A stretch of DNA of 64,000 bases from Mustelus asterias (GCF_964213995.1 NW_027590164.1:1-64000); one strand, 5' to 3'; counted from the stretch's first letter, positions 3,559 to 60,807 are shown. The notes: generated by a model from the sequence alone, not told the origin. A program made the numbers and translations.

Positions 3559-4821
3559 TCACTCGTGAACTCGCTGGTGTCTCAGCAGCCGGGATGAAAC
3601 TCTGAATCCCTTCCCACACTGAGAGCAGGTAAACGGCCTCTCCCCAGTGTGAACTCGCTGGTGTGCCCGCAGGCTGGATGACTGAGTGAATCCCTCCCCA
3701 CACTGAGAGCAGGTGAATGGTCTCTCCCCAGTGTGAACTCGCTGGTGTGCCTGCAGGTGGAATAACCGAGTGAATCCCTTCCCACACTGAGAGCAGGTGA
3801 ACGGTCTCTCCCCAGTGTGAACTTGCTGGTGTCTCTGCAGGTGGGATAACTGAGTGAATCCCTTCCCACACTGAGAGCAGGTGAACGGTCTCTCCCCAGT
3901 GTGAACTCGCTGGTGTGCCTGCAAGTTGGATAACCAAGTGAATCCCTTCCCACACTGAGAGCAGGTGAATGGTTTCTCCCCAGTGTGAACTCGCTGGTGT
4001 GTCTGCAGGTTGGATAACCGAGTGAATCCCTTCCCACACTGAGAGCAGGTGAATGGTCTCTCCCCAGTGTGAACTTGCTGGTGTGTCCGCAGGGTGGATA
4101 AACAAGTGAATCCCTTCCCACATTGAGAGCAGGTGAACGGCCTCTCCCCAGTGTGAACTCGCTGGTGTGTCCGCAGGTTGGATGAACAAGTGAATCCCTT
4201 CCCACACTGAGAGCAGGTGAATGGCCTCTCCCCAGTGTGAACTCGCTGGTGTGTCCGCAGGGTGGATAAACAAGTGAATCCCTTCCCACACTGAGAGCAG
4301 GTGAATGGTCTCTCCCCAGTGTGAACTTGCTGGTGTGTCCGCAGGGTGGATAAACAAGTGAATCCCTTCCCACATTGAGAGCAGGTGAACGGCCTCTCCC
4401 CAGTGTGAACTCGCTGGTGTGTCCGCAGGTTGGATGAACAAGTGAATCCCTTCCCACACTGAGAGCAGGTGAATGGCCTCTCCCCAGTGTGAACTCGCTG
4501 GTGTGTCCGCAGGGTGGATAAACAAGTGAATCCCTTCCCACACTGAGAGCAGGTGAATGGCCTCTCTCCAGTGTGAACTCGCTGGTGTGTCCGCAGGTTG
4601 GATGAACAAGTGAATCCCTCCCCACACTGAGAGCAGGTGAATGGCTTCTCCCCAGTGTGAACTCGCTCGTGTGTCCGCAGGGTAGATAACTGAATGAATC
4701 CCTTCTCACACTGAGAGCAGGTGAATGGTCTCTCCCCAGTGTGGCTGCGCCGATGAGCTTCCAGCAGAGATGGGGCTCTGTATCTCTTCCCACAGTCCAC
4801 ACATTTCCATGGTTTCTCCAT
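3559..4821 (-). CDS. Tandem C2H2 zinc-finger protein ZNF-A, 15 fingers, 420 aa from MEKPWKC; intact
   Basis: Uninterrupted CxxC-x12-HxxxH repeats with TGERP links; first ATG in gcaccATGG context at 4821; splice acceptor at 5173-5174 upstream. Confidence 0.9.
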
Positions 4822-5310
4822 GGTGCAGGTGTCCTTACCTCTCTCTTGGGTGAACAATTAGTTGAAACTTCGTCCACACACAGAACAAGATTACAGTCTC
4901 TCCCCGCTGTGAATGGTGTGATATTTATTCAGACTGTGTAACTGGTTAAAGCTCTTTAGTCAGTGCATTGGAACACACTCACTCAAGTGTGGCAGTGTGT
5001 TGATGCTTTTTCACTCACACAGACATTTCAAATCTTTTCAAATCGACAGGCTGCACAATCATTTCTCCTTCTGGATTCAAAGTCCGATGATATTGAGGTC
5101 CCAAGGGATATGACTCTGTCAGATCGAGACGTGACGTCTGAGATTTCGGCCTGTGATTCCTCTTTCAATATCCTGTAAAATGAGTTTACAAAAGTCATCA
5201 GTGTCAGTACAGGATAGAAATTCAGAACAGACAATTTCTATGGAACATTCTTTCCTCTCTCATTCCCCAAAAGCTGTAAATCTCCATCCCACACACTCTC
5301 TCCCCATTCT

Positions 5311-5495
5311 CAGCAGGTCTGGCAGCATCTGCATGGAGAGAAAAGAACTGATGTTTCAGAGCTTTGACAAAGGGTCATCGAGACAAGAAACATCAGCTCT
5401 TTTCTCTCCTTACAGATGCTGCCAGACCTGCTGAAATTTTCCAGCATTTTCTCTCTTGGTTTCAGATTCCAGCATCCGCAGTAATTTGCTTTTAT
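5311..5495 (+). mobile_element. Short Penelope-like pLTR insert with inverted 5' segment
   Basis: 5311-5357 is an inverted copy of ~5387-5433; hammerhead-like 'agagctttgacaaagggtc...gaaacatcagctct'. Confidence 0.6.
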
Positions 5496-6500
5496 AAGGC
5501 TGCAGATACCTCCTCCCAAGTAACATGCGTGTGCCCAAGACATCACCACTTGTTTCCCTTATTTCTTTAGCACCCATGGTGCTCTCCGCAGTAAACACAG
5601 AGGAGAAGTATTCATTAAAAATCTCACCCATCTCCTGCGGCTCCACACACAGATGGCCATACTGATTTTTAAGGGGATCTATTCTCTCTCTAGCCACCCT
5701 TTTACTCTTAATATAGCTATAGAACCTCTTGGAATTTTCTTTAATCTTACCTGCCAGATCCATATCATACCCTCTTTCTGTCCTCCTGATTTCCCTCTTC
5801 AGTATTTTCTTACACTTTTTATCGTCAGAGTGATTCACTTGTCCCCGATTGCCGAAACCCAATGTATGCTTCCTTCTTTTACCTGACCAGAGCCTCAATG
5901 TCCCTTGTCTGCCAGAGATCCCTAAATTCACCATTCTTTCCCTGCATCTTAACAGGAATATACTGACCCTGGATTCTTGATATCACACTTTTTTAAAACC
6001 TCCTATTTCCCAGTCATTCCTTTCCCTTCAAACAAACTCACCTAATCGACATCTGCTCGATTCTGCCTAATGCACATAAAAGTGGCCCTGCTCCAGTTTA
6101 GGGCCTTGACCTGTGGACCTGTCCTATCTTTTTCCTGAACTATTTTGAAACTATTGGTGCTCCCAATAGTGCTCCCTGACTGACACTTCAGTCACTTGCT
6201 CGACCTCATTTCTTAACTGTCTAATAGAAAGTGAGTCCAGGAATTGATGATGAAAAATGAGGAGCTGGGAGATGAATTGAACAAGTATTTTGCCTCGGTG
6301 TTCACAATAGAGGATACAGTTAAAACTCAGAAACAGCTGGAAATCAGAAAACAGAAGTGTGGGATGAACTCTGAAAAAGCACAATTCCCAGGGAAGTGGT
6401 CCTCAGCAAACTGTTGGAGCTGTGGGCTGATGGGTCCTCGGGTCCTGCTGGGCTTCATTCCCGGGTCCTGCTGGGCTTCATTCCCGGGTCTTAACAGAGG
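5496..6500. mobile_element. CR1 ORF2 fragments (minus strand to ~6230, plus strand ~6240-6500)
   Basis: KIKENSKRFYSYIKSK...EIFNEYFSSVFT (minus); ELNKYFASVFTIED (plus). Confidence 0.75.
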
Positions 6501-6549
6501 GAGATAGTTGGTGTTGTTCAATTTTCTAAACCGTCTGTCGCCATTCCCC

Positions 6550-59887: not shown

Positions 59888-60190
59888 GGCTGGGGTTGTT
59901 CCCCTTGGAGCAAAGGAGGTTGAGGGGAGATTTGATAGAGGTGGACAAGATTCTGACAGGTTTAGATAAGGTGGACAAAGAAAAGCTGTTCCCATTAGCT
60001 GATTGGACAAGGATGAGGGGGGTCACAGATTTAAGGTTTTGGGTCAGGGATGCGGGGCGGGGGGGGGGGAATGTGAGGAAGAATATTTTGATGCAGTGAA
60101 TGGTAATGACCTGGAACTCGCTGCCTCCGAGGGTGGAGGAAGTGGAGACAAAAAACAATTACAAAGGAAATTGGATGGGCATTTGGGGGG
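59888..60190 (+). mobile_element. CR1 3' fragment
   Basis: LGLFPLEQRRLRGDLIEV. Confidence 0.8.
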
Positions 60191-60237
60191 TTTTGGACAA
60201 AAATGCTGACTAAAGATCTCTGAACTTCCTCACACCG

Positions 60238-60451
60238 TCACTCTGTGATCCTTGTGAAATCTGAAACCAGGTATTCGCAACAAGACTCAAAGAGCATCAG
60301 CCCACTGGAGGCAAAGTCATGAGACCGGCCAGTCCAGCAGAAAGAAACCCTCCGACCCTCCTCATTGACTAACTGTGAGAATGAACAAAATGTAATCCTG
60401 GATGTAATTGAGAGCAGAAACAATAACAGCAGAATCCAACCCGTGTGATCA
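60238..60451 (-). pseudogene. Orphan ZNF 3'UTR with its stop codon (homologous to 3355-3561)
   Basis: Aligns by eye with the ZNF-A 3'UTR; 'tca' at 60449-60451 is at the stop-codon position. Confidence 0.8.
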
Positions 60452-60807
60452 CACCGTGAGTTCACACCAGGGAGAAACCGTTCACCTGCTCTGTGTGTGG
60501 GAAGGAATTCACTCATTCATCTCGCCTGCTGAGCCACAATCTCACTCACACCAATGAGAGACCCTTTAAATGCTCGGATTGTGGAAGTGGTTTCAAAAGT
60601 TCTCGGGATATGATGATCCACCAGTGCATTCACACTGAGGAGAGACCGTTCAGCTGCTCTCACTGCACAAAGAGATTTAGAACGTCATCCCACCTGCGGC
60701 AACACCAGTGAGTTCACACTGGGGAGAGACCGTTCACCTGCTGTGTGTGTGGGAAAGGATTCACTCAGTCATCCAGCCTGCGGAGACACCAGCGAGTTCA
60801 CGAATGA
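60452..60807 (+). pseudogene. ZNF-H, 5'-truncated four-finger fragment with internal TGA (60709-60711); paralog of the ZNF-G 3' end
   Basis: [34 protein letters not shown]; its 3'UTR to ~61130 matches 56845-57190. Confidence 0.85.

Follow-up and report, generated by a model that had tools for sequence, protein, structure and literature searches.

Cartilaginous fish have large loads of transposable elements (TEs) and we know of no KRAB or FiNZ system in them; their control of transposons is therefore the question at stake. The KRAB zinc finger (ZNF) clusters of tetrapods and lobe-finned fish undergo birth and death in TE-rich surroundings and have variable contact residues, and in these respects the shark family reported here resembles them. 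Both have clustered tandem C2H2 arrays in one last exon, as PMC10547256 describes for KRAB-ZNF genes, but the shark genes have no KRAB exon and their predicted start lies inside the last exon. According to a whale shark paper (PMC8455134), KRAB-box families were lost in cartilaginous fish. The FiNZ-ZNF genes of cyprinid fish are described as hundreds of clustered non-KRAB arrays, some of them positively selected, with an acidic N-terminal stretch, all of which recalls the shark genes, and FiNZ knock-down is reported to derepress TEs (PMC10547256). As characterized in the same paper, however, the FiNZ domain is conserved, spans 28 aa and has a coding exon to itself, whereas the shark acidic stretch lies inside the finger exon, is interrupted by stops and evolves as non-coding DNA.

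Two further systems offer partial likenesses. ZNF146 (OZF), a finger-only protein without KRAB, binds LINE-1 and is dispensable for L1 silencing in HEK293 cells, according to PMC8896011; it is a single conserved gene, in contrast to thousands of fast-turning shark copies. The PRDM9 minisatellite, as described in PMC5519329, has homogenised fingers, variable finger number and diversity concentrated at the contacts, traits that the gene A subfamily shares in part. Unlike PRDM9, the shark genes lack a KRAB, SSXRD or SET domain, and the diversity of that subfamily lies across ~200 copies rather than among alleles of one gene, with a lower statistic. Large shark ZNF counts are already published, with 475-3586 ZNF ORFs given for eight chondrichthyan assemblies (PMC10547256, Wells et al. 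2023), and that source also reports that ZNF number tracks retroelement number across animals. In a literature search mostly without subscription journals, we found no published description of this family's structure, promoter or selection; new here are the shared promoter and cassette, the putative leader-derived 5' exons and the fast-shuffling gene A subfamily.

RESULTS

Gene content of the window and genome-wide scale

The window, meaning the whole 64-kb stretch analysed, is the start of a 1.04-Mb contig in the 3.68-Gb Mustelus asterias assembly. It holds 78 fingers in eight arrays on both strands (Table 1). Genes A, E, F and G each form a single frame from the start codon and these frames contain fingers only, an OZF-like architecture that does not imply orthology to ZNF146. 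Frameshifts break B, C and D, while H, a 3' fragment that lacks a leader and contains a stop, is a rearrangement relic. The clustered tandem arrays, each in one last exon, have the layout of KRAB-ZNF genes. A leader DNA profile, built from six window leaders and run on the window, gave 12 matches (11 at E<=5e-8 and one weak, 2e-4), five on the minus and seven on the plus strand. Seven leaders precede arrays, one (24661) precedes wholly decayed fingers and the remainder are leader-only. The cluster extends to ~80.6 kb of the contig, beyond which the next leader match, within the 264 kb examined, is at 263.5 kb. Retrotransposon remains lie between the genes, comprising a near-full element at 9860-14717, presumably of the L1/Tx1-type clade, and reverse-transcriptase fragments. 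The near-full element has one frameshift in ORF2, and its ORF1 matches ZCCHC3-type RNA-binding domains. Two local repeats were also seen: an 87-base tandem duplication of a degenerate finger unit in gene B (16225-16410), and a 1.1-kb CA/CT-rich tandem repeat (41169-42295) in the last intron of gene F, an intron whose length varies among F copies.

Table 1. Features of the 64-kb window, with finger arrays given beside the gene to which they belong
Feature	Position	Strand	Finger array (fingers)	Description
Gene A coding	3559..4821	-	3565-4803 (15)	Intact, 420 aa; member of ~210-copy fast-shuffling subfamily
Gene A leader	4822..5172	-		Splice acceptor, acidic-looking stretch, decayed fingers; 8 finger-frame stops
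Promoter core (6534-6695) and 520-base cassette	6534..7072	.		97% identical to 29089-29606, reversed
Non-LTR retrotransposon, presumably L1/Tx1-type	9860..14717	-		Zinc-knuckle ORF1; endonuclease-RT ORF2 split by frameshift
Gene B	15850..16622	-	15850-16219 (4)	Broken; frameshift follows leader and 156-aa frame with one finger
Gene C	18106..19238	-	18106-19093 (10)	Leader and 268-aa frame (18323-19129, 8 fingers); frameshift costs last fingers
Promoter core and candidate short first exon	20881..21122	-		GTGAGT donor; upstream of gene C
Decayed gene	24661..25116	+		Paired head-to-head with gene C; leader present, every finger broken
Gene D	26166..27941	-	26166-27564 (12)	Leader; 11 fingers in 407-aa frame (26359-27582), 3' ones decayed and frameshifted
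Promoter cassette	29089..29744	.		Between head-to-head D and E; candidate first exon, GTAAGG donor towards E
Weak leader match	33380	+		Found with leader profile
Leader-only relic	33792..33927	-		No donor
Gene E	34441..35829	+	34669-35823 (13)	Leader; 401-aa frame, intact, from 34624
Promoter core and candidate first exon	38580..38795	+		GTAAGT donor; upstream of gene F
Leader-only copy	39495..39599	+		Has acceptor and GTAAGC donor; likely gene F's 105-base 5' untranslated exon
Gene F	42500..43401	+	42736-43386 (8)	Leader and intact 272-aa frame from 42583; regular fingers
Leader-only copy	51127..51240	+		Upstream of G; no strong donor
Gene G	55475..56844	+	55852-56838 (12)	Leader with decayed fingers, intact 336-aa frame from 55834
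Fragment H	60210..60807	+	60487-60801 (4)	Terminal fingers with stop, fused to inverted family 3' untranslated region

Across the genome, exact start motifs number 2281 + 364 (>2,600) with no hit for the reversed controls, and the places listed cluster on contigs C12, C23, C71 and C75. These counts include broken copies and possibly alleles; because many copies sit on small scaffolds, some may be alleles assembled twice. In 33 of 111 arrays the fingers were not in a single stop-free frame. Contig C132 has, near 194.7 kb (L019), a further short array of homogeneous fingers that stands apart and lacks the family leader.

Most of what the initial annotation described for this locus was confirmed, namely eight arrays (four intact), eleven leader copies (the 11 strong profile matches, to which we add the weak one), both orientations, a range from intact to leader-only copies, and intact ORFs that are almost pure fingers. 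Its proposal of birth and death by duplication is supported by block copies, broken copies and the genome-wide copy counts, a pattern of copying in blocks with frequent breakage. The 'leader exon', by contrast, is not a separate exon: it opens the finger exon, following a splice acceptor.

Structure and coding potential of the leader

The leader consists of a splice acceptor and then ~110 bases that read as an acidic peptide. In genes of type 1 the start (MEGK) is at +109 of the leader; in type 2, decayed fingers follow the leader and the start (MEKPW, context ACCATGG) is near +350. All seven array-bearing window genes have a finger-frame stop in the leader. We extended this to 135 genes with at least three fingers in the main frame, after dropping those lacking a clear acceptor or lying near a locus end, from loci picked by likeness to the window genes rather than at random. 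A stop lies between splice acceptor and finger frame in 127 of these, and the eight open genes belong to three small families that use different frames. Among 54 non-redundant leaders, variation by codon position was 0.225/0.223/0.234 (p=0.94), 23 of 64 indels were multiples of three, and the acidic frame was stopped in 44. We rejected the leader as a coding effector on these three counts; it appears to evolve as non-coding DNA here, and a coding effector is unlikely. Thirty-six aligned copies showed no conserved RNA structure over the first 113 columns of the leader. At gene C, joining the candidate first exon (20881-20970) to 19238 gives a ~60-codon frame through the acidic leader, which ends three codons before the main start and is a possible upstream ORF.

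A profile search of 1.84 billion representatives returned 30 leader relatives. Of the 20 looked up, 17 were named and all of these were sharks (sawshark, horn shark, two catsharks, white shark and basking shark). These relatives came from the profile search; a word-index search with the leader peptide gave no match, and in a protein search with the first 75 residues of gene F generic fingers swamped the results. In two gene models from other sharks (P0102 and P0116) the leader is in frame behind a Met. Judged by these matches the leader is shark-wide; it was probably once coding, and may still be so in a few genes.

Search for an effector domain

Profiles for KRAB and SCAN, built from fetched proteins and recovering 3/3 and 2/2 held-out controls, were run on 1.26 Mb, where none of 39,806 open stretches matched at E<=10. 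Pfam analysis of 147 of 217 sense-strand upstream stretches, a scan that a domain split over short exons could escape, returned reverse transcriptase (3) and one decayed finger and no effector domain. SCAN, BTB and SET domains were absent upstream by the SCAN profile (1.26 Mb) and Pfam (147/217 stretches), and the same Pfam scan found no SET domain or other hotspot machinery beside the arrays. A genome-wide KRAB search gave 0/76 candidates, but its positive control likewise gave no signal. The lack of KRAB, SCAN, BTB and SET domains noted initially is thus borne out by the profile and Pfam searches, and the suggested search upstream of the arrays, carried out with Pfam on 147 of 217 stretches, found no effector domain.

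With no profile match and 127/135 genes closed by stops, there is no sign of an upstream domain spliced in frame, as in KRAB genes; nor, given the same closure and a non-coding leader, of a FiNZ-like arrangement in which a conserved coding exon upstream reads into the array. Since upstream stops, the missing coding signature of the leader and the absence of KRAB and SCAN coincide, a hidden leader domain is unlikely. The genes look effector-less. The family is outside the KRAB and FiNZ families, being set apart from FiNZ by gene structure and by leader evolution. The initial annotation had envisaged a possible chondrichthyan analogue that lacks an effector or uses an undescribed one; the effector-less structure holds, while an effector in the leader does not, as the leader evolves as non-coding DNA. 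As predicted from its genes, the family is a shark-wide, effector-less variant of the clustered tandem-ZNF theme.

Shared promoter and leader-only copies

Four promoter cores, absent from the earlier description, are present in the window. Among 86 cores in the fetched DNA, CCAAT occurs in 85, a GC box in 83, GCATGCGC in 77, ATGGCG in 59 and a TATA box in none; we take NF-Y, Sp1, NRF1 and YY1 to be the factors usually attached to such motifs. The observed/expected CpG of the four window cores is 0.63-0.94, versus 0.38 for the whole window. A donor site follows three of the four, and no first-exon donor is evident beside the gene A core. Just downstream of the latter, a 23-base tandem repeat of variable copy number (6439-6490) occupies the place where related copies (L038, L040) have the first-exon donor, and candidate donors for gene A come later, near 6043 and 5753. 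Of 20 loci chosen by their promoter, 11 have genes that diverge to either side of it. The window has two head-to-head pairs, D/E and C/24661, which account for much of its mixed gene orientation. Overall, the predicted promoter is CpG-rich, of CCAAT/GC type and often placed between head-to-head genes.

The 520-base cassette has a median identity of 97.5% over 54 matches, among which the left flank takes at least three forms and the right flank several. Its marker has 884 exact copies genome-wide versus 210 for the gene A intron marker (reversed controls 0 for both) and the cassette is therefore shared across subfamilies. Spread by conversion or recombination at the cassette is likely. A mobile element was considered and judged unlikely because flanks recur among copies. 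At L126-L140 (contigs C28-C67 and C3), 15/15 loci have the same promoter core, and neither a leader nor a finger array lies within 5 kb of it. Several of these repeat a single unit, at least 10 kb long and with an 80-base satellite, and are 94-98% alike among those seen; no tRNA was found in five loci, and Rfam gave no matches in three. A subtelomeric reading of the C28-C67 matches was rejected because the scaffolds are 0.7-1.7 Mb.

Leader-only copies differ from array-bearing ones in carrying a GTAAG donor at +60 to +130 (6/17 non-redundant copies versus 0/39; Fisher p=0.0004), and all six donor-carrying copies sit upstream of a same-strand array. Two leader copies are joined in six RefSeq models from four other sharks (P0110, P0111, P0114, P0121, P0124 and P0128, read by eye). 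From the donors, the same-strand arrays and these joined leaders, we infer that some leader-only copies are likely 5' untranslated exons and not dead genes, including the one at 39495-39599, which is kept in 8/8 F-family copies fetched.

Turnover and selection in the gene A subfamily

Gene A belongs to a subfamily with at least 210 exact intron-marker copies, found among those listed on C71 and small scaffolds. We sampled 53 leaders at >=90% and dropped one broken copy. Of the resulting 52 copies, 45 pass the unbroken-frame pattern, four are broken and three are unbroken with an altered last finger, one of the three without an ATG. Intron identity to gene A is 91-99.8%, in most copies 95-97.5%. 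Finger number ranges over 4-15 in the 45 intact copies, which together show 30 codes and 52 internal triplets; the types of the first and last fingers do not vary. The code is shared by 28% of 39 pairs at >=99% intron identity, by 7% of 89 pairs at 98-99% and by 1% of 114 pairs at 97-98%. The predicted DNA-reading code appears to change far faster than the surrounding DNA. Positions -1/3/6 account for 0.43 of the within-array diversity in gene A, a median of 0.34 in its subfamily and 0.22 in 42 other arrays; the PRDM9 range given in PMC5519329 is 0.33-1.0, so that the gene A and subfamily values fall at its low end, though the site sets may differ.

We estimated pN/pS from 166 unique internal fingers, with kappa 3 taken from introns; only frame-tiled values were used because the Cys/His ratio of 0 from pattern-picked fingers is an artefact. 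The ratio was 0.08 at Cys/His, 0.09 at Phe/Leu, 0.25 in the linker, 0.97 at position 2 and 1.94 at -1/3/6. Without CpG and multi-base codons the -1/3/6 ratio was 1.63 (p=0.003); position +1 was also raised, as was +5 before CpG exclusion. A codon model gave dN/dS of about 1.6-2 at the contacts (p=0.017), and 1.3 with position 2 added (p=0.16). Forty neutral simulations with conversion had a mean of 1.03 (SD 0.30) and a maximum of 2.11, at least one exceeding the observed 1.94. As conversion violates tree assumptions (a point made in PMC5519329), we regard the evidence for positive selection at A-subfamily contact residues as moderate. Outside the subfamily, the contact ratio was 0.91, and in the pooled set it was near 1 against its own synonymous sites. 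Two young families are conserved at contacts (3/71 versus 16/177 synonymous, and 1/79 versus 19/199). Measuring dN/dS at the helix positions, as had been suggested, thus gave a moderate excess at -1/3/6 in the A subfamily, which was absent from other fingers and weaker with position 2 added; positive selection is not general to the family. Purifying selection on the finger scaffold is supported by these comparisons. The strong scaffold constraint in such young A copies implies use and is indirect evidence that proteins are made. At -1/3/6 of the Trp-marked first finger we counted 14 non-synonymous and no synonymous changes, and contact changes there fit a DNA reader better than a fixed docking module.

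DISCUSSION

The genes very probably have a single coding exon encoding a predicted bare finger array. We propose, with evenly balanced confidence, that the A-subfamily codes of these bare C2H2 arrays diversify to track repeat or transposon DNA without a silencing domain of their own. Shared bidirectional promoters would drive co-ordinated transcription and splicing of the genes. The last exon holds the non-coding leader and the whole array, and translation would start inside it. Unequal crossing-over and conversion among 88%-alike fingers would yield new codes, and new binding specificities would be selected, keeping pace with changing repeat or transposon DNA. Repression, if any, would act by site blocking or through partners recruited by the fingers. 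That the targets are transposons or repeats is plausible by analogy, if a little short of even. The failure of ZNF146 loss to derepress L1 in HEK293 cells, as reported in PMC8896011, counts against a TE-repression reading.

The family could instead have spread mostly by drift in a recombination-prone region, where proteins must fold, contacts wander and targets matter little. A contact ratio of about 1 outside the A subfamily and in the pooled set, a neutral simulation with conversion that reached 2.11, and the third or so of arrays (33/111) out of a single frame all fit such drift. Drift is a serious rival but nonetheless unlikely, as the A-subfamily excess persists without CpG and multi-base codons, the first-finger contacts changed only non-synonymously and the scaffold constraint in very young copies implies use. 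If the arrays are selected, satellites, meiotic or recombination sites, the cluster's own promoter or RNA might be targets rather than transposons, and the diversity share at -1/3/6 of gene A and its subfamily, which exceeds that of other arrays and approaches the PRDM9 range, would suit this. We consider such targets improbable, though likewise a serious rival; no hotspot machinery such as a SET domain was found beside the arrays by Pfam in 147 of 217 upstream stretches, and the cross-animal correlation described in PMC10547256 points to retroelements.

It is very improbable that an effector is present after all, with the acidic leader, or an upstream exon reached via another acceptor, acting as a FiNZ-like domain. 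The leader does read as an acidic 36-aa peptide, in the finger frame in one gene type, is found across sharks and is open behind a Met in P0102 and P0116; at gene C it continues in frame from a candidate first exon, but that frame closes three codons ahead of the main start. Most leaders are, however, stopped in the acidic frame and lack codon periodicity, and the sequence before the leader in other sharks' models has no common domain when read by eye.

In its fullest form, our preferred reading of bare, diversifying arrays is tentative and somewhat doubtful: an effector-free repertoire of DNA readers, in which ~200 near-identical gene-A bodies carry hypervariable, PRDM9-like arrays and one homogenised bidirectional promoter (~900 copies) would co-activate many of them, may guard against transposons or selfish repeats independently of KRAB and FiNZ. 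The A subfamily is tractable: its members have a single promoter and a single 5' sequence that knock-down could address, and their many finger codes could be assayed. An effector-less family of this kind would offer a direct test of whether sequence recognition alone drives ZNF expansion.
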